Below, piece by piece: positions 206-49,574 of a stretch of 64,000 nucleotides of DNA. Each line of letters starts with the position of its first letter. Position 1 is the stretch's first letter. The notes under the pieces are model-generated. The model was not told the DNA's origin. It made no database searches and worked only from the letters and a program-made list of their open reading frames with translations. Source of the DNA: Candidatus Doudnabacteria bacterium (GTDB lineage: Bacteria; Patescibacteriota; Doudnabacteria; UBA920); assembly GCA_963837465.1 (NCBI GenBank), contig CAWINB010000001.1, forward strand, positions 565,646 to 629,645. The letters run 5' to 3'. A program made the position numbers and the translations under genes.

Positions 206-1354
206 TTATGCTAATTCTTTTATTTGGCTCAGCCCGTCTTTAATCATGTTAACATTATCAATTACAAATCCTGTAATTTGCCCAACAGTAAAGTCAGAGT
301 TCAATAAAACGGAACGGTAAAAATCGGTCTCGCCGTATTTATTAAACATTTTATCTCCCATTGGATATTCCTTAAGGTTGCCGCCAATGTGGACAAAATT
401 AAACCACAATTTTTGTTCTAAAAGAGATTCGGCAACTTTTTTTGATCCCTTGCCGTAACCGGCGTAACCCTGCACCATTTGCCGGTAGTGGTCGCCCTGA
501 ATTTGTACCGTAAGGAACAGCCCCTTTTTCAGGACATAAGCCACGTCCATCATGCCTTGGGCATGGGATAGGCCTGATGAAAAATAGTAACCCCCTTCTT
601 TCCTTCCCGCATCCTTCGGCTTCCCAGGCATGGCGTCTTTGAAGCGGTTGATGCCGTCTTCAAAAAACACTTCCGCCTCAGGAAAGGCATTACGTAATTT
701 TTTACAAATTTCAACGGCCAGTATCTGGTACTTGAGTTTTTGGTAAATGTCGCCCATGCGCAGATCGCACAAAGCGCCGTAGGTATTATCATTGGTTATG
801 GAGTAAAAACTAAATTTATCATTGGGCTTAACGGTTATGTCTTGAAAGATTTTGCTTAAAGCAGATATAACGAAAATGTAGTCCTTAATGATATGGCTAT
901 CGTAGCTATCGTCCAAGTTTGAGTAGTTGCTTTCCATTAAGGCTGCCAGTTCCGCGTAAGTCAGCTTGGCCCAACCATCAGGAAGATCAAAAGACGGCTC
1001 AATCAAAGTTAGCAGCAGGAAATTTTGATTGACTGACGAATTCTGGCTGTAATATTTTAGCTGTTCCAGATTAGGCAGGCTTTTTACCTTATTTTCTATA
1101 ACCAGCTCTTGGCCGTTGGCAAAGAATAGGCATATATCTCGATTTTTCGCTTCCCGCTCCGTGCGGATTACAGAGGCATTGCCGTTTTGGTCTTTCAAAA
1201 ATTTTGAAAATAATTTACCAGTCTGCTGGGGATATTTTTCCGCCAGCCAAGCTATAAAATTGCTATGAAAAAGCTCTTTTGAACCAAGTGAAAAATTAAA
1301 AACTGCTGAGTTTTTAAGACCCTGTTTCAATTTTTCAATTTCTAAAATTTCCAC
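206..1354 (-). CDS. hypothetical protein with PD-(D/E)XK-like nuclease motif
   Basis: 382-aa ORF; D..E-x-K pattern (NRDICLFFANGQELVIENK) typical of PD-(D/E)XK nucleases; no specific family recognised. Confidence 0.5.
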   Translation of the reverse strand: MEILEIEKLKQGLKNSAVFNFSLGSKELFHSNFIAWLAEKYPQQTGKLFSKFLKDQNGNASVIRTEREAKNRDICLFFANGQELVIENKVKSLPNLEQLKYYSQNSSVNQNFLLLTLIEPSFDLPDGWAKLTYAELAALMESNYSNLDDSYDSHIIKDYIFVISALSKIFQDITVKPNDKFSFYSITNDNTYGALCDLRMGDIYQKLKYQILAVEICKKLRNAFPEAEVFFEDGINRFKDAMPGKPKDAGRKEGGYYFSSGLSHAQGMMDVAYVLKKGLFLTVQIQGDHYRQMVQGYAGYGKGSKKVAESLLEQKLWFNFVHIGGNLKEYPMGDKMFNKYGETDFYRSVLLNSDFTVGQITGFVIDNVNMIKDGLSQIKELA

Positions 1355-1364
1355 AAAATTATTA

Positions 1365-1733
1365 TTATCTTTTTTTAGACGAGGTTATAGTGTCCATGGA
1401 ACATTTGCCGGTAAAAGAAGCACCTTCTTCTACTTTTAAGGTTGGGCAAATGATGTCACCGCTAACTTTGGCTGTGGATAACAAAATCAACCGCCCGGAG
1501 ATGTTTATATGGCCCTGTACTTCTCCAGCGATAACCGCGCTTTCAGCCTCCGTCTCAGCCGTAATTTTCGCATTCGGGGTTATAGATATTGTTTGAGTGG
1601 TTGCAATCTTACCTTCAACACGGCCTTCAATTTTAATACTGCCTTGGCTGGTCAATTCTCCTAGTATAATGGCCGAAGGACCGATCACGGTTTCTGTTTG
1701 TTCCTCCAAAGTGTCTTCAAGTTTTTTGGCCAT
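1365..1733 (-). CDS. bactofilin family (polymer-forming cytoskeletal) protein
   Basis: 122 aa with beta-helical repeats IKIEGRVEGKI / VIAGEVQGHINISG / AKVSGDI characteristic of bactofilins. Confidence 0.8.
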   Translation of the reverse strand: MAKKLEDTLEEQTETVIGPSAIILGELTSQGSIKIEGRVEGKIATTQTISITPNAKITAETEAESAVIAGEVQGHINISGRLILLSTAKVSGDIICPTLKVEEGASFTGKCSMDTITSSKKR

Positions 1734-1920
1734 AAACTCCTTTTCGCTAAAGGTTATAAATTTAAGTCGTTTATATCAATCCCGGCTTCATCGGCTCGCT
1801 CCAAAGTTTCGTCAGCGTCACCATTTAAAATATCTTCGCCAAGCTCGTCCTTGAAGCTATTGCTATCAGGTTCTTGTCTGCTTTTATCATCCAGGTCTTT
1901 AGGTAACATAAATTTATTAT

Positions 1921-2926
1921 TTAATTTTTTGCCAACAAACGTTCCCTAATTTCATCAATATGCACTGACCTGCTTTGGTCTGCCGGAAAAATCTCTCTCA
2001 TGCTATAAGGGAAATATCCGCAAAGGCCTTCCATAATCGGCAATGCGTAATAATGTCCACCGCGCTCAAAATTCTCTCTAAAACTTTCTGGGGACGCTGT
2101 GCTAATTACGTAGATTTTTAAACCATAATTTTTTACCCCGTCAACCAAAATTTTATTGATATGCTGGTCTTTGAAGCCGTAACCTATAATCACCAATCTT
2201 TTATTTCCTTCTTTTATAACATTTTGGAATAGCTCAAAATAACACTTCAACAAAGGCTCACGCTCAATATCTTCCTCTTTATTTTTTCCAATCACCATTT
2301 GATTTAAGCCATTAGACGACCTCCACCCGTAGGAGCCGTGAAGTTTTATATAAACAAGCCCATTGTGATCGGCTATGCCTTTTTCTACTTTTTCGGAAAC
2401 CGCATCAGATGATAAGGTCACAAAAAAATTACTTTGGAATTCCGTACTTCTAAAATTATAAAAATCCTGTGGGGAAAAAAGGAGCGCCGGGGGAACGATA
2501 ACGGTATTCCCGTTCCATAAATAAATCTTGGTTTAAAGTAAAATGAAACCCTCTCTTTTGGCCATTTGCGGGTTGGAATAGATTCATCAAATCGCCATTC
2601 AAGCCGTAAATGTTAAAGGCAGTTGGATTATCGTTATTAAAAATCCAATTGCGAGTAGCGTCATCAAGTTTTTTATAAACAGCCTCTACTACCTGTTGCA
2701 TGGTCTGTTTTTCGCTGTCGCTAAACCCATTGCCGCGCAACACCCGCGAATAGACATCTTCATAGTCAAAATTTTCTCTTAAGAGGTTAGCTATGTTTGG
2801 GGTACTTTGAATGGCCGAGCTGTTGAAAATTTTTGACCACATTTCCTTGCCCAAAAAACCGTTAAAATTTTTGGTAAAGCCTGCTCCGGTTAGAAGTATT
2901 AAATTTTTTGATTGCCATTTTGCCAT
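1921..2926 (-). pseudogene. SIR2-like (SIR2_2 / DHS-like NAD-binding) protein, split by a frameshift into ORFs 2456..2926 and 1921..2421
   Basis: N-part has GAGFT glycine motif; C-part starts at GTG and has LVIIGYGFKD and YIKLHGS (catalytic His) motifs; frames differ by 1 around G/A homopolymers at 2470-2495. Confidence 0.65.
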
Positions 2927-2942
2927 AAATAAATCATCAGGA

Positions 2943-3944
2943 TTAACTGCCTACAGTGGCAGTTTCAGCTTTTTCTAAATGCTGTTTGATATTTTCCCAA
3001 AGTTTAATAAAATATAGTCTTGCAAATTCCTGGGCGGAGTGTTTTTGATAGCTTAAGTTTTTTAATTCTTCTAAATTTTGGTTTAAGCTTTGTAGTGTAA
3101 ACTGACTTTTGAATAAAATTAACGCTAATTCAACAGTTGAATTAAGCTGCTGGTCTTGGCTCTCAAACATCATGCTCGATAACTGTTCGTCTGTTATATC
3201 CCCGCTAAAAGCATACGGCCGGCCGTATGACCCAAAAGTTAGCTGCTCTTCAATTAATCCTTTCATCCTATCGTCATTCATCCAAGGCTTAAAAACAAAG
3301 GTTAATATTGCAGCCCATGCTTCCGGTAAAGTTTCGGGAAATAATTTTTTAGCAAGGTAATCCAAGTCTGGATCGTACTCATTTTTAGAATTAACCCAAA
3401 GTTTATTTCTAAGCAAATCTGTAAATTTTTCAAGGGTTACTTTTTGTACTATACTATTTTCCTTTATCCCAGCTAAAGTCACTAACCATTCATAGGGAAA
3501 ACGTTCCCATATATTGTTGTTAAACCTATCGCGAATTTTTGTAACTTCGTCAAAAAAGTTCCGATAAAAGTCAGGTAATATTTCTTTGGCATAGTACCTA
3601 TTAATATTATTTACAATCTTTTGTTCGCCCTTAAATTTTTCTACATGTTTTACAAGCGCATCAAAAAAACCATAGACGGTTATGTTTCCTTCGGCAAATA
3701 TTCTTTTTTGGATATATTCAAAAATTCCAACAAGGATAATACGTAACTGATTGTACTCTGACCAAGTTTCTCTTTTGCTCTCATCTTTCGGATCTAAAAA
3801 CTCCATTTCTTTTTGCCAAGTATTAAAGCGCCAATCTAAAACAACTGGTAAAGCTTTATAAGCCAAAAAGAAACTAGACCTTTTTTCTAAAGAGGTCTGA
3901 AAGTCGCCTAACAATTTTGATGAAAGTTTTAAATCTTCAATCAT
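2943..3944 (-). CDS. hypothetical protein
   Basis: 333-aa ORF, 16 nt upstream of SIR2 gene, overlaps stop of next gene by 4 nt; no recognisable motif. Confidence 0.55.
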   Translation of the reverse strand: MIEDLKLSSKLLGDFQTSLEKRSSFFLAYKALPVVLDWRFNTWQKEMEFLDPKDESKRETWSEYNQLRIILVGIFEYIQKRIFAEGNITVYGFFDALVKHVEKFKGEQKIVNNINRYYAKEILPDFYRNFFDEVTKIRDRFNNNIWERFPYEWLVTLAGIKENSIVQKVTLEKFTDLLRNKLWVNSKNEYDPDLDYLAKKLFPETLPEAWAAILTFVFKPWMNDDRMKGLIEEQLTFGSYGRPYAFSGDITDEQLSSMMFESQDQQLNSTVELALILFKSQFTLQSLNQNLEELKNLSYQKHSAQEFARLYFIKLWENIKQHLEKAETATVGS

Positions 3945-4435
3945 GGTTTATTAAAGAGTTGGTTTACGGTATCAACAAAAATTGTAAAAAATTCGCTTTC
4001 ATTTTCGGAATTTATTTTATCTGAATTCCAAACGGAACTCCAGGATTCTTCAGCATCTTTGGAATTAGTTAGTTTTCTTAAAAAATCAAATCGCAATGGA
4101 AATTTATTTCCTTTGAGCCATTGGTAAGATTTAATAAAGGATCGCCCTAGCAACACAACCCCACCAGCCCATAATAAAAGTTCGATGAATCTGAAAATAA
4201 TGCTTGAGTTATGCCAAAAGAAAACTGGTAAAAAAATCATGGCTAAATAAAATAGTAGCCCTTTTGAATCAATTACGTGATCCAAAATAACATGGTTATC
4301 CAGTTCCCTAAACTCGTTTTCATGATCAAAAATAGCTATAGCAACTGGGATTAAAATGGTAAGGCACGCCAGCCCAATGTTTTGAGCAAGTGCCGGAAAA
4401 TCATTGTTGCATAATAGAGAAAAAAGAAAAGGCAT
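3941..4435 (-). CDS. small integral membrane protein (3-4 predicted TM helices)
   Basis: 164 aa with hydrophobic stretches LACLTILIPVAIAIF, LLFYLAMIFLPVFFW, LLLWAGGVVLLG. Confidence 0.55.
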   Translation of the reverse strand: MPFLFSLLCNNDFPALAQNIGLACLTILIPVAIAIFDHENEFRELDNHVILDHVIDSKGLLFYLAMIFLPVFFWHNSSIIFRFIELLLWAGGVVLLGRSFIKSYQWLKGNKFPLRFDFLRKLTNSKDAEESWSSVWNSDKINSENESEFFTIFVDTVNQLFNKP

Positions 4436-4495
4436 TTTGTCTTATTGGCTAAAAATATTTCTGTACTAAAATATTAAAAAAATAATTTTTATAAT

Positions 4496-5587
4496 TTATT
4501 TCCCCGACTTAGTTCTATTATCTTGTTTGCATAACATCTGACAATTTTTTGAAACTGTTTTTCCACCCTCGTGCCAAGGTTTTATATGGTCAGCTTCCAT
4601 TTCGGAAATATCAAATTCTTTTTTACAAAATCGGCAAAAACCATTCTGTCGTTCATACGCCTCGCGCTTCATTTTGTCAGTAAACGCGCGGATAGAAAGA
4701 TAGTTTTCCTGCCTGGTTAAAACATACGGATAAATGCCAGACTTTTTGGTCACGTCTTCGTCTTGCATTAATTCTTTGACTTCGTTTTCCAGTTTTTTGG
4801 AATTAAGCTTTACGCCTTTAAATTCGTTATACAGTTCTCCCCACTGCACATCGCCCATCTCTTTGCGATAATTAGGAAAAGTTGCGCGCGCCCACTCAAT
4901 CACCATTTGAAAATATTGCCATAGTTGGTCGGCATTTTTGTCGTGCTGATGTTTGGCCATGTAACCCTCTATTTTGCCACCATTAATCCAAGAAAGCACA
5001 GTCTCTAAATAGTCCTGCCTGATGGGTGATCCATTCATTAACTTCCCTCCGTCGTTTGCCAAAAGATAGGCCACGCAATTTGTTTTGCTAAATTTTAACT
5101 TCGCATCAGAAAGCCACGGACCAGTATAAACTGCATTGCGTATCTCCTGCTGGGTAAGTTTTTCCCCCGAAATATTTATTATGGTAAACCAGTCAATCCG
5201 TTCCTTGTCCGTGCCCTCGCAAAAATAAATCATTAGCTCATAATCCAAAATCTGATTCTTTTCTTCATCGGTTAGGTTGTGAAAGTAAAGCTCGTTGAGT
5301 GAAAAATCGCCGTGTACATATTGCCCAATGCTGATAGTGCGCTGCTGCCCATCAAGGACCTCATAGTTGTCGGCGTCGATTTTCATCCAATACATCACAT
5401 TCAACGGAAAACCCTTTTTAATTGTCTCAATTACCGCGTCGCGCTGCTTGCCGCTATAAACAAATTCGCGCTGGTATTTTGGACGGATATCAAGTTTGCC
5501 ATTGTAAGCCACTACGCCTTCTTCCGAGCTGTCTTTATAGCCGGTAGCGATTTTTCGAATTGTAATGCGATGTAATTCTATTTTCAT
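4496..5587 (-). CDS. DUF262 (ParB-like nuclease) plus C-terminal HNH endonuclease; GmrSD-like type IV restriction-type protein
   Basis: DGQQRTISIG motif of DUF262; C-terminal HIKPWHEGG...CQMLCKQDNRTK HNH motif. Confidence 0.8.
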   Translation of the reverse strand: MKIELHRITIRKIATGYKDSSEEGVVAYNGKLDIRPKYQREFVYSGKQRDAVIETIKKGFPLNVMYWMKIDADNYEVLDGQQRTISIGQYVHGDFSLNELYFHNLTDEEKNQILDYELMIYFCEGTDKERIDWFTIINISGEKLTQQEIRNAVYTGPWLSDAKLKFSKTNCVAYLLANDGGKLMNGSPIRQDYLETVLSWINGGKIEGYMAKHQHDKNADQLWQYFQMVIEWARATFPNYRKEMGDVQWGELYNEFKGVKLNSKKLENEVKELMQDEDVTKKSGIYPYVLTRQENYLSIRAFTDKMKREAYERQNGFCRFCKKEFDISEMEADHIKPWHEGGKTVSKNCQMLCKQDNRTKSGK

Positions 5588-5600
5588 AACTATTTGTTCA

Positions 5601-6569
5601 CTATCTCTTTTTAATAAATAATCGTTTGAATGTTTCCTTCTTATTCAAAAATGAGCCTCTGCCGTAGACCCCATTTAGATCTTGATCTATACCGCGATTT
5701 GATCCCACAATTTCGAATTGTTCAGGATTATATCTATCAAGAAAAGTTACCGGCACGCCCATCACCCCATTATAATTCATCGGGATTTCCGAAAATTTTG
5801 ACACCTCAATCGCATCATAATTATCGTATATAGGGTATTCTTTTACACTGTATTTTTTATATAAGTTTAATTTCTCATGACGCTTCGTTGTATCCAGATT
5901 TGTGAACCACATAATACTTCCCATGCTAAAATACTTAATACCGTTCTCAACTTTTACTCTTGACTCTGTTGGTATGTCATAGTCAGCAGGCACCTGAAAC
6001 CATTTCGTTCCGCCATTATCGTAACCGAGCCACATCTTATTTTCTTTTATAAATTTAAATATTTCCTTATAAATAATGGCGTTTTGATTGCCGAGAACCA
6101 AAAACTTTTTATTGTATTCAAAAAGTTGTGCGATGTATTCGCGAAATAAAGAAAACGGTGGATTAGTAACCACGATGTCGGATTGTTTTAAAAGGCTAAT
6201 GCATTCTTGACTGCGGAAGTCGCCAGTACCTATCATCTGGGTTATAAAATCATTTGGATCAGGCAAACGACTACCTTTTTTCCCGCCGGTATACTCCAGT
6301 TTATAAGGTTGCTCATGGGTAAAAAGGTTGGCCTCTTTGTAGTGCGTGGCGATTAGTTTTTTAAGCCCCAGGTCTTGAAAGTTCAAAGTAAAATATTTAA
6401 CAAAGTTGCTTTCTTTTGGATCGTCACAGTTGCAAAAAACGACCTTGCCGCGGAATTGATCCTTGTAGTGCTTTATCTCATTTTCAATATCAGTAAGCTG
6501 AGTATAAAACTCATCTTTTTTTGCGTGGCTTGCTTTGTTCAAGTTTTTATTTAATATTTTTTTGATCAT
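5601..6569 (-). CDS. N6-adenine-specific DNA methyltransferase
   Basis: IVVTNPPF catalytic motif IV; 13 nt upstream of DUF262-HNH gene. Confidence 0.65.
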   Translation of the reverse strand: MIKKILNKNLNKASHAKKDEFYTQLTDIENEIKHYKDQFRGKVVFCNCDDPKESNFVKYFTLNFQDLGLKKLIATHYKEANLFTHEQPYKLEYTGGKKGSRLPDPNDFITQMIGTGDFRSQECISLLKQSDIVVTNPPFSLFREYIAQLFEYNKKFLVLGNQNAIIYKEIFKFIKENKMWLGYDNGGTKWFQVPADYDIPTESRVKVENGIKYFSMGSIMWFTNLDTTKRHEKLNLYKKYSVKEYPIYDNYDAIEVSKFSEIPMNYNGVMGVPVTFLDRYNPEQFEIVGSNRGIDQDLNGVYGRGSFLNKKETFKRLFIKKR

Positions 6570-6738
6570 AGGCTTGCGGACGGAAATATAGCGACATTAA
6601 TATACTTTAATTTTATCACTTTTCCTTGCTTTTGGTAAGCCGGAAAATGAGGAGTTTCCAAGGGTTTTGGCGGGCTGGACAAGGCACGTGGGTTGCGTCA
6701 TTCATGTCTTGTAAGCAACTAACCAGAAAGGAGAAAAT

Positions 6739-8085
6739 ATGCAAGGATTAAGGACAAAACAGGCGGTCGGGCTGATAGACCAATCAGCCGCGCCGCCGCA
6801 AATAGCAGCAACGGTCAAATACTGCCTCTACAGCAGAAAAAGTTCCGAGGACGACGAACGCCAGGCGCTGTCCATAGACAGCCAAATTAAGGAGATGCGG
6901 GCCATGGCCCAGCGCGAGAATATGGAGGTGGTGGAGGTAAGAAAAGAAAGCCACTCTGCCAAAGCCTCGGGCATGAGGCCGGTCTACAATCAACTCTTAG
7001 TAGACATAAGAGCCGGAATGTTTAACGGAATTTTGACCTGGGCACCGGATAGGCTCTCCCGTAATGCCGGAGACTTGGGCGGGTTGGTAGATCTGATGGA
7101 TCAGGGCTACTTAAAAGAAATCCGTACCCATGGCCAAAGATTTACCAACTCACCAAACGAAAAATTCCTGCTGATGATTTTATGCTCTCAAGCCAAGCTA
7201 GAAAACGACAACCGCGGCATTAACGTAAAGCGCGGGCAGCGGGCAAGGCTGGATACTGGCCATCGGCCATGCCTGGCTCCCATAGGTTACCTGAACGAAA
7301 AAATCGGTTACCGCGGAGGGAGCAAAATCATAATAGACCCGGATAGGTCAAATTTTGTAAAACAGATGTTCGACCTAGTGGCCAACAAATTCTACACCGG
7401 CAGAGCTATATATAATTGGGCTAAAGAGGTGGGGTTTACCACCAGAAGCGGCAAGCCGGTGGCTTTAAGCAGTATTTTCCGGATGCTGGGGTCTACCTTC
7501 TACTACGGAGAGTTTGAGTGGCCGGTGGGCAGCGGGCAAATCTACCAAGGCAACTACCCAGCCTTGATAACCAAAGAGCTGTTTGAAAAGGCCAGAAAAA
7601 ATCTGATGACTGCCCCTAAGTCCAAGCCCGGAACTAAAGAGTTTAATTTTACCAAGCTGTTCTACTGCGGCTCCTGCCACAGCGGCATCACGGCCGAGGA
7701 CAAAATTAAATACCTTAAGGACGGGACGGTAAACAAATATATCTACTACCACTGCAGCCAATCCCAGGACTTGGACTGTCCCGAGCCATATATCAGGGAG
7801 GAAGACTTGCTGGAGCAGTTGATCAGTATCATAGATAAAATAGACCTGAATAAGTCCGGACTAAAGCAGCAGATAGACAGCGAGCTGGAACGGCTGCAAA
7901 GCTTTAGTAGCGGCATCTTAGGCAAGATGCTGACGGGCCAAGATCTGACCCAAAAGTTCAGCCCCAAAGAATATGCCAAGCATATTATCAGATACGGCAA
8001 CCATGATGAGAAACGCCAGCTGTTGCAATCCATCAACTCAAAAATTTACCTCAAAAACAGGAAGCTCAAGGTCGGTAAAAGATAA
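6739..8085 (+). CDS. large serine recombinase (integrase)
   Basis: N-terminal resolvase motif YSRKSSEDDERQALSIDSQ, recombinase domain, zinc-ribbon CGSCHSG; RBS aggaga upstream. Confidence 0.85.
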   Translation: MQGLRTKQAVGLIDQSAAPPQIAATVKYCLYSRKSSEDDERQALSIDSQIKEMRAMAQRENMEVVEVRKESHSAKASGMRPVYNQLLVDIRAGMFNGILTWAPDRLSRNAGDLGGLVDLMDQGYLKEIRTHGQRFTNSPNEKFLLMILCSQAKLENDNRGINVKRGQRARLDTGHRPCLAPIGYLNEKIGYRGGSKIIIDPDRSNFVKQMFDLVANKFYTGRAIYNWAKEVGFTTRSGKPVALSSIFRMLGSTFYYGEFEWPVGSGQIYQGNYPALITKELFEKARKNLMTAPKSKPGTKEFNFTKLFYCGSCHSGITAEDKIKYLKDGTVNKYIYYHCSQSQDLDCPEPYIREEDLLEQLISIIDKIDLNKSGLKQQIDSELERLQSFSSGILGKMLTGQDLTQKFSPKEYAKHIIRYGNHDEKRQLLQSINSKIYLKNRKLKVGKR

Positions 8086-8206
8086 AGTACCCAGGACTCG
8101 AACCAAGGGTTTAAGCGGGATTTTTATCAAGAGGAGAGTTGGGAATCGAACCAAAAAACCCTAATAAAAATAGAAAAAGTTATTCAAAGTAATTTTTTAC
8201 AAAACA

Positions 8207-8238
8207 AAATCCGAGAGCGGTAAAGTTCTCGGATTTTG
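8207..8238 (+). terminator. hairpin aaaatccgagag/ctctcggatttt followed by tgtt
   Basis: perfect stem with T-rich tail about 120 nt after recombinase stop. Confidence 0.4.
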
Positions 8239-8305
8239 TTATTGACCCCATTTTCACGGTATAAGGCCCCTAGGGCACCTGGGTCAATTTTGAAACCTGT
8301 AATAG

Positions 8306-8712
8306 TGGCTCGGGAGCTGGGATTCGAACCCAGGACCCATCGGTTACACTTAACCCTAATATTTCTACTAGGCGTGGACTATATCATCATCCCCGATGGA
8401 GGGACGCGAGGCGCTTGGGTCGATTTTATCAACCTACTCCCATAAAGGGATAGTCTCTGAACCTTCAATGGCTTTCGCCAAAGTTTGGCTGCTGATTGCC
8501 TTGTGGTATTTATATACCAGTTAGGTTTCCAGTCCGCCTTCGTCTGCCTGTAGCAGATTATAGCGGATCCGTGCTATAAAAACAAATTATAGTTACGGGC
8601 AATTCACCTCGTTTTTCAATCTCAATTACTTGAGAAAGCTGCTAATTTTCAACTTATTTTGAGACAAGTTGACGGTCTACAGCCGATTGCTCTACCGCTG
8701 AGCTACTCCCGA
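8306..8712 (-). tRNA. tRNA-Asn(GUU) interrupted by a group I intron
   Basis: Exons 8679-8712 (TCGGGAG TA GCTC AGCGGTA GAGC A ATCGG CTGT) and 8306-8346 (TAA CCGAT GGGTC CTGGG TTCGAAT CCCAG CTCCCGA G CCA) join to a canonical 76-nt cloverleaf, anticodon GTT, discriminator G. Confidence 0.7.
8347..8678 (-). ncRNA. group I intron in tRNA anticodon loop (between positions 35 and 36)
   Basis: Conserved R element GTTCAGAGACTA (8448-8463 rc) and S element GATGATATAGTCC (8373-8390 rc); internal guide TTAGCAGC pairs with ligated junction GCTGT/TAA with G.U at splice site; ends in G. Confidence 0.7.
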
Positions 8713-11414: not shown

Positions 11415-11852
11415 GATTAAATAAGATTAAAAGATTGACCAAAATTTATTTCGTGCGCTGGTTTTTAATTGCGGAATTCTTTGACGCTACCATTATAGCG
11501 GTAACTTCATCAGCTTCCTGTAATAACTGCTTCACCTGATCGTCTTTTATAATATCTGAATCGCTTAACAATTCCAGCCAAAACGCGCTTCGTCCGCTTC
11601 TTCAATTACAATGCCAAGCTTGGCAATAAAATCTCTGGCTGATTTTGCCCTGCAGGCCGCGCGATAATTAGCCGCAACTGATGTTCCTGATCTAAATATT
11701 TTCCTGCCTATAAATTTTCCTGTCGGATGTTTTTCTAAAAATTCCGCGAGCTTCATTATTCTTAAAGCGAACTTCTTTGTCCTGTCCTGTAAATCCCTGG
11801 GCGTTATAATTCTGTCAATTTTGTTCAATACTGGTCAATCTTGGTCAATCCC
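11403..11852. mobile_element. MITE-like insertion with 16-bp terminal inverted repeats carrying a four-helix-bundle gene
   Basis: gggattgtccaagatt (11403-11418) vs reverse complement of aatcttggtcaatccc (11837-11852), 15/16 match; internal tandem sub-repeats aagatta x3 and tggtcaatc x2; sits between the two genes of an ABC transporter. Confidence 0.4.
11565..11828 (-). CDS. four-helix bundle protein (TIGR02436, 23S rRNA intervening-sequence protein family), C-terminally short
   Basis: DLQDRTKKFALRIMKLAEF ... GTSVAANYRAACRAKSARDFIAKLGIVIEEADE matches family; 87 aa vs about 115 typical. Confidence 0.7.
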   Translation of the reverse strand: MNKIDRIITPRDLQDRTKKFALRIMKLAEFLEKHPTGKFIGRKIFRSGTSVAANYRAACRAKSARDFIAKLGIVIEEADEARFGWNC

Positions 11853-44091: not shown

Positions 44092-44508
44092 TTTTCCGCC
44101 TTAGCTAAAGCTATGGCGGATGAAAAAGAATTAAAATTTTCGGTTGATTAGTACTGCTCGGCTGAACACATTACTGTGCTTACACCTGCAGCCTATAGAT
44201 AGCGTTTAGTTATTAGCGTTTAGCGTCCAGTATTGCTACTATTCGCTATTCACTAACCGCTATTCACTATTTTGTTACGGGGTAGTCTTCCCCGAACCTT
44301 TTGTCACCGAAGTGACAACGAAACCTAGTTTTGTAGACGGCTTCACGCTTATATGCCTTCAGCGCTTATCCTAACTAGACCTAGCTACCCCGCCATGCCC
44401 TGGACAGGACAACGGGTACACCAGAGGTCTATGCTTTTCGGTCCTCTCGTACTAAAAAAGCGACTACTCAAGTTTCGCACACCCACAGCAGATAAGGACC
44501 AACACTTT

Positions 44509-44830
44509 GTTACAAAAGTAACAAAAATTCCAAATTTCAAATTAAAAATTTCAAACTGGAAAACACTTTGCTACTTTGGCATAAATATTTCTATTATGCT
44601 CTGCATGTCGCCATGCAGTTCGGACTATATCTTCAATGCATTATCCCGGCGGTTCATCCGGTATCGTAAAAATTTAAGATTGATAATTACAAAGTCTGGC
44701 GTGTAGTCTCTACGGGTTCCCTGGGATTGTTATGTATTCCCAAAGCCTTCCCTCGGTATTGTCTCACGTTTTCTACCATGAGAGTTTCACCGATTTAGCC
44801 AAATTTACAGACAGCATGGTTATTCCTTTT
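44509..44830 (-). ncRNA. group I intron 3 at the L2593-equivalent site (after GTGAGACAGT), no ORF
   Basis: R element GTAGAGACTACAC and S element GAAGATATAGTCCGAAC; exon resumes ...GGTCCTTATCTGC. Confidence 0.65.
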
Positions 44831-44908
44831 ACTGTCTCACGACGTTTTGAACCCAGCTCGCGTACCACTTTAATATGCGAACAGCATAACCCTTGGGAGC
44901 TTCTACAC

Positions 44909-44947
<39 letters not shown>

Positions 44948-45491
44948 TCTCGTCGCTGTGGACGCTTGGAGAGGATCAGCCTGTTATCCCTAGAGTAACT
45001 TTTATCCGTTGGGCTTTGCGTCTTCCACTCGAACGCATCGGATCACTAACTTCCACTTTCGTGCCTGCGCGGGTCGCTGCCCTTGCAGTCAAGCAGGCTT
45101 ATGCGTTTGCACTACCGGCATGATTTCCATCCATACCTAGCCTACCTTAATAAACGCCTCCGTTACCATTTAGGAGGCAACCGCCCCAGTTAAACTACCC
45201 ACGAGCCACTGTCCCAAAGCAGGTTAAACTTTGGTTAGCAATTTCATCTTTACAGGGTGGTATTTCACCTGTTGCCTCCATGCCAGCTGGCGCCGGCACT
45301 TCAAAGGCTCCCACCTAGGCTAAACAATAAAAATAAAATTGCAATGACACGCTATAGTAAAGCTTCATAGGGTCTTTCCGTCTTGCTGCGGGTAGACGGC
45401 ATCTTTACCGCCATTGTAAATTCATCGGAATGTTCGTTAAGACAGTTCTCTACTCGTTATGCCATTCGTGCGGGTCGCAACTTACGCGACA

Positions 45492-45812
45492 CAAAATTGT
45501 TACTTTGCAAAACCACATCGGTTACTGATTGAGCTCTGTGGCGCGCTAATCTTTCGATTAGCATCTGCATGTCGCCATGCAGTTCAGACTATATCATCTC
45601 GCCTTGTTGGCGAGTTCCGCGTATAGTCGTTGAGGATCCGTTAAAAAAATTCAACGTTTCCTGCGGATTGTCCGGACTCCAACTCGTTTTGTTGGCATCA
45701 CTGAAGCATTTTTACTTATAAATAAGTAGCTTCAGATACTTCCGGGGTTCCCCGCATACAGCGGAATTTTCCATTCTTTAATAAATATTAAAGAATGGTC
45801 CCAGTCGTGTTT
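45492..45812 (-). ncRNA. group I intron 2 in domain IV (after GGTAGCGAAATTCCT), no ORF
   Basis: Q element AATCCGCAGG, S element GATGATATAGTCTGAAC; P7-P9 block CTGCATGGCGACATGCAG shared with intron 3. Confidence 0.65.
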
Positions 45813-45838
45813 AGGAATTTCGCTACCATAGGACAGTT

Positions 45839-46574
45839 CATTTATGTTAGCTTTATGTTTCCATAAAGATCAGACTATATCATTCCACCAGATTGATGGA
45901 TTCGGCGTTTAGTCGTTGAGGGTTTTTACTAAATGATTCTTTAAAATTTGTTAAATTATGTTTTCGTGTTCTTCCTTTTCCTTCATTTAAGCCTTCACGA
46001 AGTTTTACTATTTCTAGCAAGCCTTCGGAAGTTAAGTGTTGGTTTGCAAAAACTAGTTTTGCAATTTTAGAAAATAACGAATAGTTTCTTTTTTTAATTG
46101 CGGACAAGAAACCGAACCGGTCAAAGAAAGGGATTATTCTTTCTTTGAGTGCTGTATGATTTTGAACAATATATTGATGTACTCCATCTTTTCTATGGTC
46201 AATGCGACCACAGCCTAAATGATGCTTCAATAATGCAAGTACGGTAATATCTTTTTGAGAGACATTAAACGTTAGAATAACTTGCCATAATACTTTACTG
46301 TCAGTTCGTTTACGAAGGGAAACGTTAAAGCTTCCTTCTCCGTCTACAAAACCTGCAAAGTAATTTCCAAATTCAACAGGAATTTGTTTTAACCAATTTT
46401 GATCCATAAAGTTTCCTTTTGAATCGTTTAGTAAATCTTCCCTGCGGATTGACTGTATCTTGTAAATTTTTACTGTCATATTTCAGACGAGTATTACAAG
46501 TTTTAAGCACGTCGTTGTCCACGCGTGCACAGTTATTCCCGCAAATAGCCAAATTTTATAACTACAACATGTTC
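45839..46574 (-). mobile_element. group I intron 1 at the L1917-equivalent site (GTAACTAT|AACTGTCC) carrying a homing endonuclease gene
   Basis: Q element AATCCGCAGG at 46441-46455 rc, S-like GGAATGATATAGTCTGATC near 3' end; separated from intron 2 by a 26-nt exon (45813-45838). Confidence 0.7.
45880..46479 (-). CDS. LAGLIDADG homing endonuclease (intron-encoded)
   Basis: FAGFVDGEGSF motif; ORF lies entirely within intron 1. Confidence 0.85.
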   Translation of the reverse strand: MTVKIYKIQSIRREDLLNDSKGNFMDQNWLKQIPVEFGNYFAGFVDGEGSFNVSLRKRTDSKVLWQVILTFNVSQKDITVLALLKHHLGCGRIDHRKDGVHQYIVQNHTALKERIIPFFDRFGFLSAIKKRNYSLFSKIAKLVFANQHLTSEGLLEIVKLREGLNEGKGRTRKHNLTNFKESFSKNPQRLNAESINLVE

Positions 46575-46758
46575 ATAGTTACTGCCGGCGTTCATCAGGG
46601 CTTGGCCGAGCGGCTTGCGCCACCCGGTTTAACCTTCTGACACTGGCCAGGCATCAGCCCGTATACATCAGCTTGCGCTTTAGCACGGACCTAAGTTTTT
46701 GGTAAACAGTCGGAGGAGATCTTTCGCTGCGGGCCTAATTTATATGCTGGGTAATGAA

Positions 46759-47227
46759 GATATTTGAGACAGCAAATATCAAACTGTTTAAAAAATCAGG
46801 GTTAAGATTTTCCAAAGGAGGGTGTGTGGTACTCATCGCGGGTTCGAGCCGCAACAATTCAATCAAACGTGAGGTTAATCCGTCCGATTTATAACACACT
46901 TATCCCTCCTTTGGTACGGAGTTGACGGGTCCTAGGACGCCTAGTCGAGAAGGCAACAATGGTCTGTTGCCGACAAGACTATTTTTTCATCTACTCCGAA
47001 CTGGTGCATCGGATGGGAGTTGAACCCATACTGACACGGCTTAAGAGACCGCCGCTCTGCCCTTGAGCTACCGATGCGATTGTTTAAATCAAACAATCAA
47101 AACTTTCACCATAAAGAGTGATTACATTCTCACTTTGCCTCGCGGCTTATCTCTTTACTCAGAACGGGTATGCCTTTAACGGGCCGTATCTTTTCTAGGA
47201 GTCTTTATGGCAAACTCTAAAATTTTT
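46759..47227 (-). other. 469-nt insertion in 23S helix 63 region flanked by an 18-bp perfect inverted repeat
   Basis: arms tatatgctgggtaatgaa (46741-46758) and ttcattacccagcatata (47228-47245); flanking sequence matches E. coli 23S about 1700 and 1770. Confidence 0.5.
47002..47077 (-). tRNA. tRNA-Lys(CUU)-like cloverleaf embedded in the 23S helix-63 insertion
   Basis: GCATCGG TA GCTC AAGGGCA GAGC G GCGGT CTCTTAA GCCGT GTCAGT ATGGG TTCAACT CCCAT CCGATGC A CCA; perfect 7-bp acceptor and 5-bp T stems; anticodon stem has two G.U pairs. Confidence 0.5.
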
Positions 47228-47823
47228 TTCATTACCCAGCATATAAAAAGGTCAAGGTATATACCGAAGGTACACCTGCTTTTTTGCCGAGTTCCTTAAC
47301 GAACATTGTTCCGGACGCCTTGGGATTCTCTCCCCATCCACCTGTGTCGGTTTACGGTACGGACACTTTATAACGTGACTTCGACGCTTTTCTTGACACC
47401 TTGATTCACACTAATTCCCGTTGCCAGGTTTCTTCTTATTTTCGAGATTGTAACCGGACTTTACATCTCTCGCGAGGCAGTAAAGCCCGAAAAAGAAATT
47501 CCGGATTTGCCTGGAATTTCACCCTACGAATAAGACAACGCAAATAGTCAGATTACGCCAGTGTTATCATGATGCGTCCCGCCTAAGATAATTATAAAGT
47601 GGTTACGGAATATCAACCGTATTTTCCATCGGATGGACCCCTTGGGGCCCACTCTTAGGATCGACTAACCCAGGGACGACGATCGTTGCCCTGGAAACCT
47701 TGGATATTCGGCGAAGAGGATTCTCACCTCTATATATATTACTTATTCCAACATTCTTACTTGTACACTGTCCACGGCCGCTTACGCATACCGCTTCAAC
47801 CTGTGTACAACACTCCTCTACCA

Positions 47824-47938
47824 CTTGTGCGAAGCACAAGCATCCTTGATCCTTTATCATTTATCCTTGACCAACTGCGGAGCTGCAGCGGTAAAAGATA
47901 AAGGATTAAAGATAAAAGATACTTGTGCTTCGCACAAG
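47824..47938 (-). other. intervening sequence (IVS) in 23S helix 45
   Basis: 17-bp perfect stem cttgtgcgaagcacaag / cttgtgcttcgcacaag enclosing AT-rich hairpin at the canonical IVS site. Confidence 0.6.
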
Positions 47939-48020
47939 TCCACGTCTTCGGCACCTAGCTTAGCCCCTATATATTGTCGGCGCAGGATCGCTTGACCAGT
48001 GAGCTGTTACGCTTTCTTTA

Positions 48021-48057
<37 letters not shown>

Positions 48058-48829
48058 GGGCAATCCCACATCCTTTACACTATAGCTAGGATTTGGGGGC
48101 CTTAGACGGTGGTGTGGATTCTTCTCCATTTGTCTGGTGGAGCTTAGCCCCCACAGACTGACTGCCAGATTCTTGACCTTAAGAATTCAGAGTTTGGTTG
48201 GAGCCTACCGCTTGCGCAGCAGGTTTCCATTCAGTGCTTTACCTCTTAAGGGAACATCTGACGCTAGCCCTAAAGCTATTTCGAGGAGAACCAGCTATCA
48301 CCCGGTTCGATTGGAATTTCTCCCCTACGCACAGCTCATCCCCTATTTTTGCAGCAATAGTGGGTCCGGACCTCCCGTTACTTTTACATAACGTTCATCC
48401 TGGCCATGCGTAGCTCACGCGGGTTTCGGGTCTAACTCATGCGACATATAGGAATAGAATTATGAATATGGAATTATGAATTAGGAATACTGCGAATGCA
48501 GTCCCATAATTCTTAACTCATACTTCATAATTCTCATCCTATTACGGACTATTCATCCTCGCTTTCACTGCACTTTCGTCTTTGATAAGACTTAAGTAAG
48601 CCGCACAAGATTAACTCGTTGGATCATTCTTCAATAGGCACGCGGTTACTCACTGCTTCGCAGATGAGAATTTCAAATTAAAAATTTCAAATGTCAAATG
48701 AACTTGCAAGCTGCAGCCCTTTTGAAATTTGTAATTTGATATTTGACATTCCTAACTGCGAAGCAGTCAGAGCTTCCACTCCTTGTAAGTATACGGTTTC
48801 AGATACTATTTCATTCCCCTTCCGGGGTG

Positions 48830-48870
<41 letters not shown>

Positions 48871-49025
48871 ATATGAGTATTTAGCCTTGGATCTTAGTCG
48901 ACCCGATTTCCGACCAGATTTCTCGTGTCTGGTCGTACTCAAGTTTAAAGTTCAGGAAATTGCATGGTTTTTCGCGATACGGGACTATCACCCTCTTTGG
49001 TCCGCCGTTCCAGGCGTGTTCTGCT

Positions 49026-49235
49026 AAACAGCAAACATAATTCCCAGCCCCTTTACAGAGGGGCAATGACTTCCACTTATAACGCCATCTTAGCAACGAC
49101 TGTAATCTTTAATTCTCCGTCTTGCGACTTTGAAAACACTAAAATGGTTTGGGCTAATTATTTAGAGATTAGCGTTTAGCGAATTAGCGTTTAGTAACTA
49201 ACCGCTATTCACTATCCACTAATCACTAATAATAT
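49026..49235 (-). other. about 210-nt expansion/IVS in 23S helix 9 region
   Basis: about 60 nt in E. coli; contains tagcgtttagcg / taaccgctattcactat short repeats also present in 3'-terminal expansion 44190-44275. Confidence 0.5.
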
Positions 49236-49574
49236 ACTTCCGCGTTCGCTCGCCACTACTAACGGAATCTCTTTCGTACTCGCGTACGAATTGATTTATT
49301 TTCCACGTGCTACTGAGATGTTTCACTTCGCACGGTTCCCGCATATACCGCCCCACGGCGGCACAGCACGCGCTCTTCCAGCGCGTGGGTTTCCCCATTC
49401 GGACACCCCCGGATCAAAGCTTGTTTGCCAGCTCCCCGAGGCTTTTCGTCAGGCTACAACGTCCTTCATCGGCTCATATTACCTAGGCATCCACCGTATA
49501 CCCTTATCTATTTTAATTCTATCCGCGAATTGTCATCTGTCTTAAAAAAACAGACGCGCGATCCGCGGTTTATT

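Follow-up and report, generated by a model that had tools for sequence, protein, structure and literature searches.

A bacterial tRNA-Asn(GUU) gene interrupted within its anticodon by a group I intron of a large family found mostly in Patescibacteria

Results

A Split tRNA-Asn Gene Beside a Serine Recombinase

The window—a 64,000-nt stretch of a Candidatus Doudnabacteria contig—carries on its minus strand, at 8306–8712, a tRNA-Asn(GUU) gene whose anticodon is interrupted by a 332-nt group I intron. A prior sequence-only reading had given these coordinates exactly, with no mention of the strand. The 5′ exon (8712..8679, minus strand; 34 nt, ending ...AUCGGCUGU) supplies the acceptor strand UCGGGAG, the D arm, the anticodon-stem strand AUCGG, and the loop nucleotides CU followed by G34 and U35. 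The 3′ exon (8346..8306, minus strand; 41 nt, UAACCGAU...GCCA) continues with U36, A37, and A38, the stem strand CCGAU, the variable loop, the T arm, the acceptor strand CUCCCGA, G73, and an encoded CCA. Joined, the exons form a tRNA-Asn(GUU) of 75 nt, CCA included, rather than the 76 nt first claimed. ARAGORN in its default mode did not detect the gene. Run on the spliced sequence it folds a cloverleaf with anticodon GUU, and with introns allowed it reports tRNA-Asn(GTT) with a 332-nt intron.

Convergent with the tRNA lies a large serine recombinase of 448 aa (6739..8085, plus strand) with the Pfam domains Resolvase (PF00239; 7e-18), Recombinase (PF07508; 7e-13), and Zn_ribbon_recom (PF13408; 9e-7); its stop codon falls 220 nt short of the tRNA. 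Two T-arm-like fragments occupy 8088..8160 (minus strand), between the recombinase stop and the tRNA. About 65 nt past the tRNA 3′ end, a terminator-like hairpin with a U run can be read from the sequence (8205..8240, minus strand; AAAAUCCGAGA...UCUCGGAUUUU); its loop exceeds 8 nt, which places it outside the list of the terminator scan. A promoter scan found no promoter for the tRNA. The ORF at 8236..8445 (plus strand) is antisense to the 3′ exon and the intron and has no Pfam match, and its earlier dismissal as an artefact is reasonable.

Fold of the Intron

The intron (8678..8347, minus strand) has no ORF: the longest open frame on its sense strand runs to 64 codons and contains no endonuclease motif. 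Its assignment to group I, made earlier from the sequence, is borne out by a match to Rfam Intron_gpI (RF00028) at 8661..8355 (minus strand; 53.3 bits, E = 1e-10, model positions 1–253, full length), about 3 bits above the gathering score of 50. Both consensus blocks named in the sequence-only reading were found, R as GGUUCAGAGACUA and S as GAUGAUAUAGUCC. The minimum free energy is −105.1 kcal/mol (z = −5.4 vs. shuffles), and the P1–P9 fold that had been set as a test was obtained, with RNAalifold predicting P1–P9 from 41 sequences of the family described below.

The internal guide sequence (8637..8645, minus strand; UUAGCAGC, intron nt 34–41) is complementary to the anticodon-loop junction and includes the U·G pair, as had been proposed. 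Its UUA (nt 34–36) is the P10 partner of U36–A38, and GCAGCU (nt 37–42) is the P1 partner of (G30 G31) C32 U33 G34 U35; within it, GCAG(C) pairs with C32–U35, the G37·U35 wobble included. The P1 exon pairs C-G, U-A, G-C, and U·G are invariant in 41/41 sequences, and the intron pair next to the U·G covaries (G-C 16, C-G 11, A-U 8). In the window copy, intron nt 1 and the base that precedes the guide G on its 5′ side form an A-A mismatch, at a position that is paired in most relatives. No covariation was found between the guide and anticodon-stem positions 30–31, and the C that follows GCAG is conserved irrespective of the base at position 31; P1 thus consists of the four loop pairs and intron pairs only.

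Downstream of P1, the P2 hairpin (8620..8635, minus strand; UCUCAA-GUAA-UUGAGA) has a GNRA loop and compensatory changes in 6/6 pairs. The 5′ strand of P3 is CGAGGUG (8605..8611, minus strand), partnered by CGCCUCG at 8407..8413; up to five pair types occur per position among 78 sequences, and four of the seven pairs show compensatory changes in the 41-sequence alignment. An alternative P3 5′ strand, AGGCG at intron nt 140–144, is ruled out by the covariation of CGAGGUG with CGCCUCG. P4 is a covarying 6-bp helix (UGCUGG/UCAGCA, UCGGGG/UCCCGA, UGCGGG/UCCGCA, and others). Its 5′ strand is contiguous as UGCUGG in 65/78 relatives; in the window copy it is split between UG (8601..8600) and CUGG (8532..8529) by a 67-nt insertion (8533..8599, minus strand) that folds into two hairpins in the minimum-free-energy structure. 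The segment that follows (8490..8532, minus strand) runs from CUGG through J4/5 (AAA), P5 (CCUAAC...ACAAGG), and J5/4 (CAA) to P4′ (UCAGCA), and its P5 resembles the 11-nt tetraloop receptor, for which the family consensus is CCUAAA..UAUGG. Rfam places P4/P5 at AAUUGCCCGUAAC, a placement ruled out by the family consensus P4 (UG^CUGG/UCAGCA with the 67-nt insertion at the caret); the Rfam alignment goes wrong in P4–P5 because the insertion splits the P4 5′ strand.

P6/P6a, with a GAAA loop, spans 8461..8489 (minus strand), and all seven P6a pairs show compensatory changes. The guanosine-binding helix P7, which matches the Rfam core, pairs GAGACUA of the R block (8451..8457, minus strand) with UAGUCC of the S block (8376..8381). 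It is invariant in 78/78 and 41/41 sequences and therefore neutral as to covariation; like the four P1 exon pairs, it lies beyond the reach of that test because it does not vary. Between P7 and P3′ lie two extra hairpins (8418..8450, minus strand): a P7.1-like UCCC..GGGA and, after the linker GUA, a P7.2-like GGUUGAU-AAA-AUCGACC with compensatory changes in 6/6 pairs. Both fold in 73/78 relatives; the Rfam alignment handles this region as a 35-nt insertion, against the 33 nt given here. P3′ (8413..8407) leads into the P8 hairpin (8406..8388; both minus strand), and P3, P4, P5, P6a, and P8 each show compensatory changes. The 3′ end (8347..8375, minus strand) comprises P9.0 (AC/GU), the GAAA-looped hairpin P9, and the omega G at 8347. 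P9.0 pairs covary (C-G 26, U-A 9, A-U 3, U-G 3) and stand directly before the G that precedes UAA.

A Family of Introns at the Same Site

We scanned species-representative genomes with a pattern comprising only the S block, G/UAA (slash, splice point), and the T-loop. Introns of the same family occupy the same tRNA-Asn site in at least 120 species-level genomes, mostly metagenome-assembled Patescibacteria/CPR. Re-cutting was possible for 107 loci: 107/107 gave Asn-type tRNAs with the same split site, and the 5′ exon ended in CUGU in every one, a motif that lay outside the search pattern. Covariation was assessed on a 41-sequence alignment for P1–P9.0 and on 78 sequences for P3 and P4. The independent RNAalifold prediction (41 sequences) shows compensatory changes in 43 of its 56 pairs. 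The full P1–P9.0 model, P7 pseudoknot included, is 95.4% paired, and 47/68 of its pairs show compensatory changes (41 sequences), as compared with 74% paired in shuffles and 35–41% in models slid by 1–3 columns. The covariation score is 0.568 vs. 0.171, and the observed value was reached by none of 500 shuffles.

About 30 of the 107 relatives carry, in the P1 loop, an ORF for an HNH endonuclease of ~105 aa. These introns measure 511–630 nt, and 12/13 intron ORFs match Pfam HNH (best E = 2e-6). Identical or near-identical exons can enclose different introns—549 nt with an ORF at locus L053, 268 nt at L100, and 216 nt of another subfamily at L147—which indicates that the intron turns over. That minimal sister subfamily (L147, L126) occupies the same site without the P7–P3′ hairpins. 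The sequence comparisons suggest a mobile family, spread by homing, with the window copy as an ORF-less derivative.

The Neighboring Recombinase and a Possible Attachment Site

The sequence-only reading had proposed that the tRNA 3′ end served as an attachment site for the neighboring enzyme. The part of this proposal that stands is the company the recombinase family keeps. Of the intron-bearing tRNA-Asn loci, 74 extend at least 1.5 kb downstream; 18 of these have a homologous recombinase, in every case downstream of the tRNA and convergent with it, and 17 of the 18 recombinase ORFs enter the tRNA 3′ end, all in one and the same frame. Sampling by recombinase yielded 22 loci at which the stop codon falls within a tRNA convergent with the gene, with nine isotypes represented. 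The window recombinase's own subfamily is tied instead to tRNA-Asn: 13 to 15 close relatives sit 30–78 nt upstream of an intron-bearing tRNA-Asn, with the stop codon overlapping the −35 box of its promoter. At three of these loci another intron-bearing tRNA-Asn copy lies 1.2–2.7 kb away in inverted orientation, an arrangement that could likewise belong to a module that is invertible or carries tRNA.

An att junction did not emerge from the window. No repeat of the tRNA 3′ end was found in the window or beyond the recombinase at related loci, and the recombinase stops well short of the tRNA. T-arm fragments had been reported at this place and do exist: on the minus strand they read ..CUUGG UUCGAGU CCUGG.. 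and ..UUUGG UUCGAUU CCCAA CUCUCC.., with T-loop-like motifs at 8094–8104 and 8142–8152, so that three such motifs, the tRNA's own T-loop counted, fall within 240 bp. Of 17 positions compared with the tRNA-Asn 3′ end, the second fragment shares 15. As evidence for an attachment site the fragments are weak. Recombinase and tRNA might simply be neighbors by coincidence and the motifs at 8094–8152 chance matches rather than att scars, a reading that we consider unlikely though still worth weighing. The motifs are short—with one mismatch allowed, an 11-mer would be expected 3.6 times per window, against eight occurrences observed—and the fragment beside the recombinase stop appears in L147, the closest relative, in degenerate form. 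The window has no far-end copy; serine integrases do not duplicate their target sequence, and those of mycobacteriophages are reported not to use tRNA genes (PMC9262239). Chance is harder to reconcile with the convergent recombinases that run into tRNA 3′ ends, with the 22 stops inside tRNAs and the 13 to 15 upstream relatives, and with the peptide that the window fragments spell in frame past the recombinase TAA: DSNQ and ESNQ, the same D/E-S-N-Q antisense T-loop peptide as in recombinases that run into tRNAs.

That the recombinase frame ends inside a tRNA 3′ end at 17 + 22 independent loci suggests an att site embedded in the 3′ coding end of the recombinase. We tentatively propose, at somewhat less than even confidence, an extensive family of large serine recombinases for which tRNA genes serve as the address, undescribed in the literature searched. 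If this holds, the T-arm fragments would be scars, and the tRNA-Asn gene with its intron part of a recombinase-driven hot spot; the far end of the candidate element probably lies beyond the window start. Motifs of the form GGTTCGAGCC in other recombinase genes were considered as att scars and rejected, since they lie in coding sequence in two frames (WLEP.., GSNL..). A single-protein scan of viral contigs for a free (attP) form returned one distant recombinase, with no tRNA-like sequence.

Splicing Proposal

Taken together, the exons and the intron fold very probably represent a functional tRNA-Asn(GUU) gene interrupted between U35 and U36 by an ORF-less 332-nt group I intron, with catalysis and splicing in vivo predicted from the conserved structure. 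In the precursor, GCAG (intron nt 37–40) would pair with loop nucleotides C32–U35 in a short P1 with the U35·G37 wobble, without disturbing the anticodon stem. P7 would bind an external guanosine, which would then attack after U35. UUA (nt 34–36) would hold the 3′ exon at U36–A38 as P10, and the terminal G (nt 332), placed by the 2-bp P9.0, would move into the P7 site. Exon ligation would produce the anticodon loop CUGUUAA.

We consider it improbable that the intron is instead a decayed, nonsplicing relic in a tRNA-Asn pseudogene made redundant by a copy elsewhere in the genome, even though the homing endonuclease ORF is absent, the Rfam score is near threshold, and some related loci (L126) have two tRNA-Asn copies. 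All 57 invariant alignment columns are kept by the window copy, every helix of the family model pairs in it, the exons are intact with CCA encoded, and no further tRNA-Asn was found within the 64-kb window. Two further features favor the relic reading. The 67-nt insertion breaks the core helix P4 and could impair folding; the same point, however, carries comparable two-hairpin insertions in three other species (L021, L108, and L026), a one-hairpin insertion in a fourth (L080), and a 1-nt bulge in five, which indicates that the site tolerates insertions. The A-A mismatch leaves intron nt 1 unpaired but is offset by a full 3-bp P10.

The position of the cut bears on the identity of the tRNA, which the tRNA fold alone leaves ambiguous. 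GU is repeated at both intron ends, and the cuts CU/.../UGUAA and CUG/.../GUAA (slashes, splice points) therefore also give perfect cloverleaves in ARAGORN, as Thr(UGU) and Thr(GGU). ARAGORN labels 64 of 110 relatives (~60%) Thr(tgt). Splicing is predicted to fall between U35 and U36, as first claimed, fixed by the invariant U·G and by the covarying P9.0 with its terminal G. A tRNA-Thr(UGU) or (GGU), with the intron two nucleotides (or one) further 5′ (positions 33/34 for UGU), is very improbable: a group I 5′ site needs the U·G, and the guide G stands opposite U35 in 41/41 sequences; P9.0 sets the terminal G immediately before UAA; and where a relative's intron ends in something other than GUG, Asn is the only possible reading, on the same tRNA body. 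That body is itself Asn-type. U1 and G73 are present in the window tRNA, where U1 pairs with A72, in 107/107 relatives, and in nine intron-less tRNA-Asn genes from related metagenome loci, whereas three tRNA-Thr genes from such loci have G1-C72 and U73. The identity elements of E. coli AsnRS are G73 and the anticodon. The P1 wobble, P9.0, and the body thus rule out both Thr alternatives and support the Asn(GUU) identity proposed at the outset.

Discussion

The modeled core resembles subgroup IC3 in the layout of its features (P3–P8, P4–P6, GNRA loops in L2 and L9, and a receptor-like P5). Compared with the IC3 introns of cyanobacterial/plastid tRNA-Leu(UAA), Azoarcus tRNA-Ile(CAU), and Agrobacterium tRNA-Arg(CCU), it shares insertion into a bacterial anticodon loop, small size (typically 180–345 nt in the window family), a short P1 drawn from anticodon-loop nucleotides that leaves the anticodon stem intact, GNRA loops L2 (GUAA) and L9 (GAAA) with a candidate P5 receptor motif of the CCUAA..UAUGG type, the R/S core sequences, and an ORF absent from most copies. 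It departs from them in its host and site, tRNA-Asn(GUU) at 35/36; in the 33-nt, two-hairpin insertion between P7 and P3′ that 73/78 relatives add to the compact IC3 core; and in the 67-nt module in P4 of the window copy. We know of no IC3 introns with extra hairpins between P7 and P3′.

Two added hairpins in the P7 region also characterize subgroup IA phage introns (Twort orf142-I2 and T4 td), as the P7.1–P7.2 domain, which in Twort has been described as encircling the guanosine-binding pocket (PMC1995217). By their position, the hairpins of the window family may be homologous to P7.1/P7.2. The IA introns, in contrast, interrupt phage protein-coding genes, and the P2/P5/P9 tetraloop/receptor layout and small size of the window intron look IC3-like.

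The intron of Synechocystis tRNA-fMet, which encodes I-Ssp6803I, offers a parallel in its mobility. It too lies in an anticodon loop and belongs to a family with and without endonuclease genes, a pattern that in both families points to homing followed by ORF loss. [quoted passage not shown]

The mechanism is ordinary; it is the host tRNA that is absent from the searchable literature. A 2007 paper put the number of bacterial tRNA genes with introns at four (PMC1995217), Asn goes unmentioned in a 2014 review (PMC3984707), and our full-text searches for a group I intron in tRNA-Asn returned organellar or unrelated papers only. Lui et al. (2021) remark that group I introns make some CPR tRNAs hard to detect (PMC8172020), in a passing comment that cites a private communication and specifies neither the host tRNA nor the site nor the structure. 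The present family adds tRNA-Asn(GUU), at 35/36, to the bacterial tRNA hosts of group I introns (Leu, fMet, Ile, and Arg). Standard tRNA finders miss tRNA-Asn genes with such introns or label them tRNA-Thr, so that genomes appear to be without tRNA-Asn or to have a surplus tRNA-Thr(UGU), and estimates of completeness and decoding are distorted for the lineages concerned. With its size, its HNH-encoding and ORF-less forms, and its record of intron replacement, the family is a natural data set for intron homing; its P7.1/7.2-like hairpins and the P4 insertion hot spot suit it equally to the study of how peripheral elements of ribozymes evolve.

The neighborhood recalls the islands and prophages that tyrosine integrases insert at tRNA 3′ ends: a recombinase beside the tRNA 3′ end, tRNA-like fragments nearby, and cargo of restriction or defence type (an EcoRI-like methylase and GmrSD-HNH, SIR2-like, and PD-(D/E)XK proteins). 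Unlike those islands, it has a large serine recombinase and no direct repeat of the tRNA 3′ end, and in relatives the recombinase ORF itself terminates within the tRNA. An association of serine recombinases with tRNA genes also contrasts with the mycobacteriophage report cited above. Elsewhere in the same window, a 23S rRNA gene, one of whose insertions carries a tRNA-Lys, contains at least two, and probably three, group I introns, insertions separate from the tRNA-Asn intron and with ORFs of their own.

A Group I Intron in tRNA-Asn(GUU)

The minus strand from 8712 to 8306 reads TCGGGAGTAGCTCAGCGGTAGAGCAATCGGCTGT, then 332 nt, then TAACCGATGGGTCCTGGGTTCGAATCCCAGCTCCCGAGCCA (exons 8712..8679 and 8346..8306; intron 8678..8347). 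On sequence and comparative evidence, tRNA-Asn(GUU) here holds a genuine group I intron that lacks an ORF and is almost certainly functional. Default ARAGORN reported no tRNA in the window besides tRNA-Ser and tRNA-Lys; with introns allowed, it returned tRNA-Asn(GTT), 75 nt, with a 332-nt intron. In an Rfam scan at gathering thresholds, Intron_gpI matched at 8661..8355 (−) with 53.3 bits (E = 1e-10; cut-off 50 bits), and the R block GGUUCAGAGACUA and S block GAUGAUAUAGUCC are visible in the local alignment. No ORF lies within the intron, whose isolated fold reaches −105.1 kcal/mol (z = −5.4 against 100 shuffles). A sequence-only reading had placed the feature at 8306–8712 and suggested an Rfam scan and an intron-aware tRNA search; both recover the locus, and its coordinates, intron length, R/S blocks and guide sequence all stand. 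The mature tRNA is 75 nt by ARAGORN, not the 76 nt that the sequence-only reading had given.

Relatives of the Intron in Public Genomes

We scanned species-representative genomes with the pattern ATATAGTC-N{15,45}-GTAA-N{12,14}-GGTTCGANTCC, representing the S block, the G|UAA junction, and the T-loop. At least 120 loci match, and those listed lie mostly in Patescibacteria/CPR metagenome-assembled genomes, with Omnitrophota, Elusimicrobia, and a few other labels also represented. Re-cutting gave clean exons for 107 listed loci plus the window copy, with introns in two length groups: 180–345 nt (n = 78) and 511–630 nt (n = 30). The tRNA-Asn intron family is found widely across public genomes.

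In 2007, the count of bacterial tRNA genes containing group I introns stood at four (PMC1995217), Asn is unmentioned in a 2014 review (PMC3984707), and Lui et al. (2021), citing a private communication, describe some CPR tRNAs as having group I introns that are hard to detect (PMC8172020). Our full-text search for tRNA-Asn with a group I intron returned nothing relevant, with incomplete coverage that makes this absence no proof of novelty. The splicing mechanism of the window intron is standard; what is new is which tRNA hosts it and where, together with the extra hairpins and the P4 module. The main value of the family lies in annotation and as a comparative data set.

Splice Point and tRNA Identity

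The tRNA fold alone leaves the splice point ambiguous because a GU marks both the 5′ exon end (CUGU|AGAC) and the intron end (AAGUG|UAAC). ARAGORN returns a perfect cloverleaf for each of three cuts, which read Asn GUU, Thr UGU, and Thr GGU. Of the 110 related intron-bearing tRNA-Asn genes listed, intron-mode ARAGORN labeled 64 as Thr(tgt), and a few relatives among L002–L121 (loci sampled through an intron-bearing tRNA-Asn) as His, Tyr, Asp, Lys, or Leu. These mislabelings arise because the first and last bases of the intron mimic anticodon-loop positions.

The exons themselves are uniform. All 107 re-cut relatives and the window copy have U1, discriminator G73, and a 5′ exon ending in CUGU, a motif absent from the search pattern. 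At other metagenome loci, intron-less tRNA-Asn has the same body as the intron-bearing genes (TCC...GGAG|CCA), and tRNA-Thr at those loci has the body GCC...GGCT|CCA. The shared CUGU end, U1, G73, and Asn body therefore identify all re-cut loci as tRNA-Asn split at one site.

A MAFFT alignment of the window copy and 40 short relatives (A1, 41 sequences) locates that site. U35 pairs with the guide G in 41/41 sequences, and a 2-bp P9.0 directly before the last G covaries (C-G 26, U-A 9, A-U 3, U-G 3), so the terminal G is the one preceding UAA. Because the U·G is invariant and P9.0 covaries, the splice sites are fixed at U35/U36; this comparative evidence puts the intron between these two nucleotides and makes the anticodon GUU. 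The insertion between 35 and 36, the Asn identity, and the U·G at the 5′ splice site proposed from sequence alone are thereby upheld. A Thr identity for the relatives was rejected as an artefact of the GU repeat, since the body is Asn-type and the U·G and P9.0 fix the cut; Thr labeling of intron-bearing tRNA-Asn is a systematic annotation trap.

Intron Structure and Covariation

The family consensus begins with L1, xxx-GCAGC, P2 with a GNRA loop, UUGAAAAA, CGAGGUG (P3), and AAU, followed across P4–P6 by UGCUGG (P4), AAR, CCUAA.. (P5) ..AUGG, YAA, UCAGCA (P4′), and GCC.. (P6/P6a). The P7 region comprises GGUUCAGAGACUA (P7), UCCC..GGGA, GUA, and a second hairpin; the 3′ part comprises AAGCGCCUCGC (P3′), P8, GAUGAUAUAGUCC (P7′), AC, P9 with a GAAA loop, and ..GUG. 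Among 78 members, as many as five pair types are seen at single positions of P3 and as many as four at those of P4; P7 does not vary, and in 73 members two hairpins fold between P7 and P3′.

RNAalifold, run on A1, recovers on its own the anticodon stem, P1–P6, P6a, the two extra hairpins, P8, and P9, with a compensatory change in 43 of 56 predicted pairs. With the P7 pseudoknot, two proximal P4 pairs, and P9.0 added, the full model is 95.4% paired in A1, against 74.2% for shuffles and 35–41% when partners are slid by 1–3 columns. Both sides have changed in 47 of its 68 pairs, and the covariation score is 0.568 versus 0.171 (0/500 shuffles reach the observed value). P1 uses only the loop nucleotides C32–U35, and the base 3′ of GCAG is C irrespective of position 31; the anticodon stem is therefore not invaded by P1. 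The Anabaena tRNA-Leu intron P1 likewise spares the anticodon stem (Zaug et al. 1993, as cited in PMC3984707).

In the window copy, intron nucleotide 1 (A) faces an A immediately 5′ of the guide G and does not pair with it; most relatives do have this pair, and it covaries. That guide-side base instead pairs with U36 in the window copy and in three relatives, giving a full 3-bp P10 (UUA/UAA). A 67-nt two-hairpin module (8599..8533, −) breaks into the 5′ strand of P4, separating UG from CUGG, and because of it the Rfam alignment misplaces P4/P5. This strand is contiguous in 65 of 78 relatives and carries a one-base bulge in 5; similar insertions of two hairpins occur at this point in L021, L108, and L026, and one of a single hairpin in L080.

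The GNRA loops on P2 and P9 and the CCUAA..UAUGG-like P5 of the family look like the layout of IC3 tRNA introns, as in the Azoarcus structure. Its two P7–P3′ hairpins resemble IA introns by position, occupying the place of P7.1/P7.2; IC3 and IA are both candidate subgroups. In the Twort intron, P7.1/P7.2 are described as surrounding the guanosine pocket (PMC1995217). The minimal sister subfamily that occupies this tRNA site in L126 and L147 has neither hairpin.

Intron Mobility

The 30 introns of 511–630 nt (within L006–L118, e.g., L053) carry a ~105-aa HNH endonuclease-like ORF in the P1 loop that starts M-P-D-K-R-x-Y-A-D-R and continues with C-x2-C-G-Y, H-H, and C-A-N-C-H-R-E motifs. Pfam HNH was matched by 12 of 13 such ORFs (best E = 2e-6), and several are truncated or frameshifted. 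Identical or near-identical exons contain different introns: 332 nt in the window, 549 nt with an ORF in L053, 268 nt in L100, and 216 nt, of the minimal subfamily, in L147, which shares 82% nucleotide identity with the window across the flank 7639–8385. Together, these features are the pattern expected of homing, ORF loss, and replacement.

A Serine Recombinase Associated with tRNA 3′ Ends

Domain search identified a large serine recombinase (6739–8085, +) convergent with tRNA-Asn. On its far side, on the minus strand, lie genes for an EcoRI-like adenine methylase (5601–6569), a GmrSD_N+HNH protein (4496–5587), a SIR2-like protein (1921–2421), and a PD-(D/E)XK protein (206–1354). This defence-type run (206–6569) has the look of island cargo; the island itself probably continues past the window start. 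A bactofilin gene also lies among the run.

Homologous recombinases occur in 18 of the 74 listed intron-tRNA-Asn loci whose downstream sequence reaches 1.5 kb or more, always downstream and convergent. Seventeen of these ORFs (within L002–L097) stay open into the tRNA-Asn 3′ end in one constant frame, ending in ..L-L-R-G/D* or reading through the T-arm as ..D-S-N-(L/Q/P)-E-P... Conversely, among 76 metagenome loci picked by recombinase, 22 (within L149–L197) have the stop codon 11–227 nt inside a convergent tRNA. Nine isotypes are represented (Asn ×6, all intron-less; Gly, Thr, and Ile ×3 each; Pro and Arg ×2 each; Ser, Leu, and His ×1 each), and the association is therefore with tRNA genes generally, not with the intron. 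Together, the 17 and 22 loci suggest that the 3′ coding end of the recombinase itself contains an attachment site; we found no published description of recombinase ORFs ending inside tRNA 3′ ends. The pattern is noteworthy because serine integrases leave no target duplication. It is so also because tRNA genes are said not to serve as integration sites for those of mycobacteriophages (PMC9262239), and we consider the pattern a more surprising lead than the intron.

Six loci (L018, L040, L032, L023, L080, L025) carry two GGTTCGAGCC motifs ~100 nt apart in the recombinase C-terminal coding region. They are read in two different frames (WLEP.., GSNL..), and the arrangement points to conservation at the DNA level.

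In the subfamily of the window recombinase (41–85% identity), a co-directional intron-bearing tRNA-Asn lies 30–78 nt past the stop in 13–15 loci (L125–L131, L142–L144, L148, L150, L162, L171, L177), where the stop overlaps the −35 box of a TTGAAA-17-TGTGATAAAAT tRNA-Asn promoter. A second, inverted intron-bearing tRNA-Asn lies 1.2–2.7 kb farther in L126 (6760–7026), L131, and L142; the two L126 copies have identical exons and ~93% identical introns. These pairs may form an invertible or tRNA-carrying module.

The convergent layout, with recombinase and tRNA-Asn ~220–240 nt apart, is found in the window, L147, L124, and L153. At 8083–8240, past the window recombinase TAA, the frame continues for ~50 further sense codons, STQDSNQGFKRDFYQEESWESNQKTL..., spelling S-T-Q-D-S-N-Q-G...E-S-W-E-S-N-Q. 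The T-loop-like motifs there (8094–8104 and 8142–8152), seen as T-arm fragments in the sequence-only reading, are real but short; the fragment with the second agrees with the tRNA-Asn 3′ end at 15/17 positions. The in-frame DSNQ/ESNQ therefore marks the fragments as antisense T-loop codons, where other recombinases meet a tRNA. The further sense codons suggest that the window recombinase once reached towards the tRNA, like its relatives, and the fragments are plausibly decayed junctions. We read the tRNA-Asn neighborhood as a habitual address of this recombinase. The earlier proposal of the tRNA 3′ end as attachment site is thus partly sustained: recombinase relatives recur at tRNA genes, but a tRNA 3′-end repeat sought in the window was not found. 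On either side of the recombinase gene (6658–6674 and 8103–8119) stands an imperfect direct repeat of 17 nt, CCAAGGGTTT(TG/AA)GCGGG, which may be chance; its downstream copy overlaps the first T-arm-like fragment.

Insertions in the 23S rRNA Gene

The 23S rRNA gene (44127–49518, −) spans 5.4 kb. Rfam identifies group I introns at 44601–44859 (69 bits) and 45565–45799 (64 bits), and a third, sub-threshold match (45851–46057, 40.6 bits) adjoins a 199-aa ORF (45880..46479, −). The gene also contains a strong tRNA-Lys(CUU) (47002–47077, −; Rfam 60.4 bits, CCA encoded) in a ~505-nt insertion (47282→46712), which takes the place of ~65 nt in domain IV of the E. coli 23S rRNA and in which no group I intron was detected. 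If RNase P and RNase Z process this tRNA-Lys, the 23S rRNA would be fragmented there. Distant from the rRNA operon and flanked by ABC transporter genes, an 87-aa ORF (11565–11828, −) shows a weak match to PF05635, the "23S rRNA-intervening sequence protein" family, at 31.4 bits where the cut-off is 33.8.
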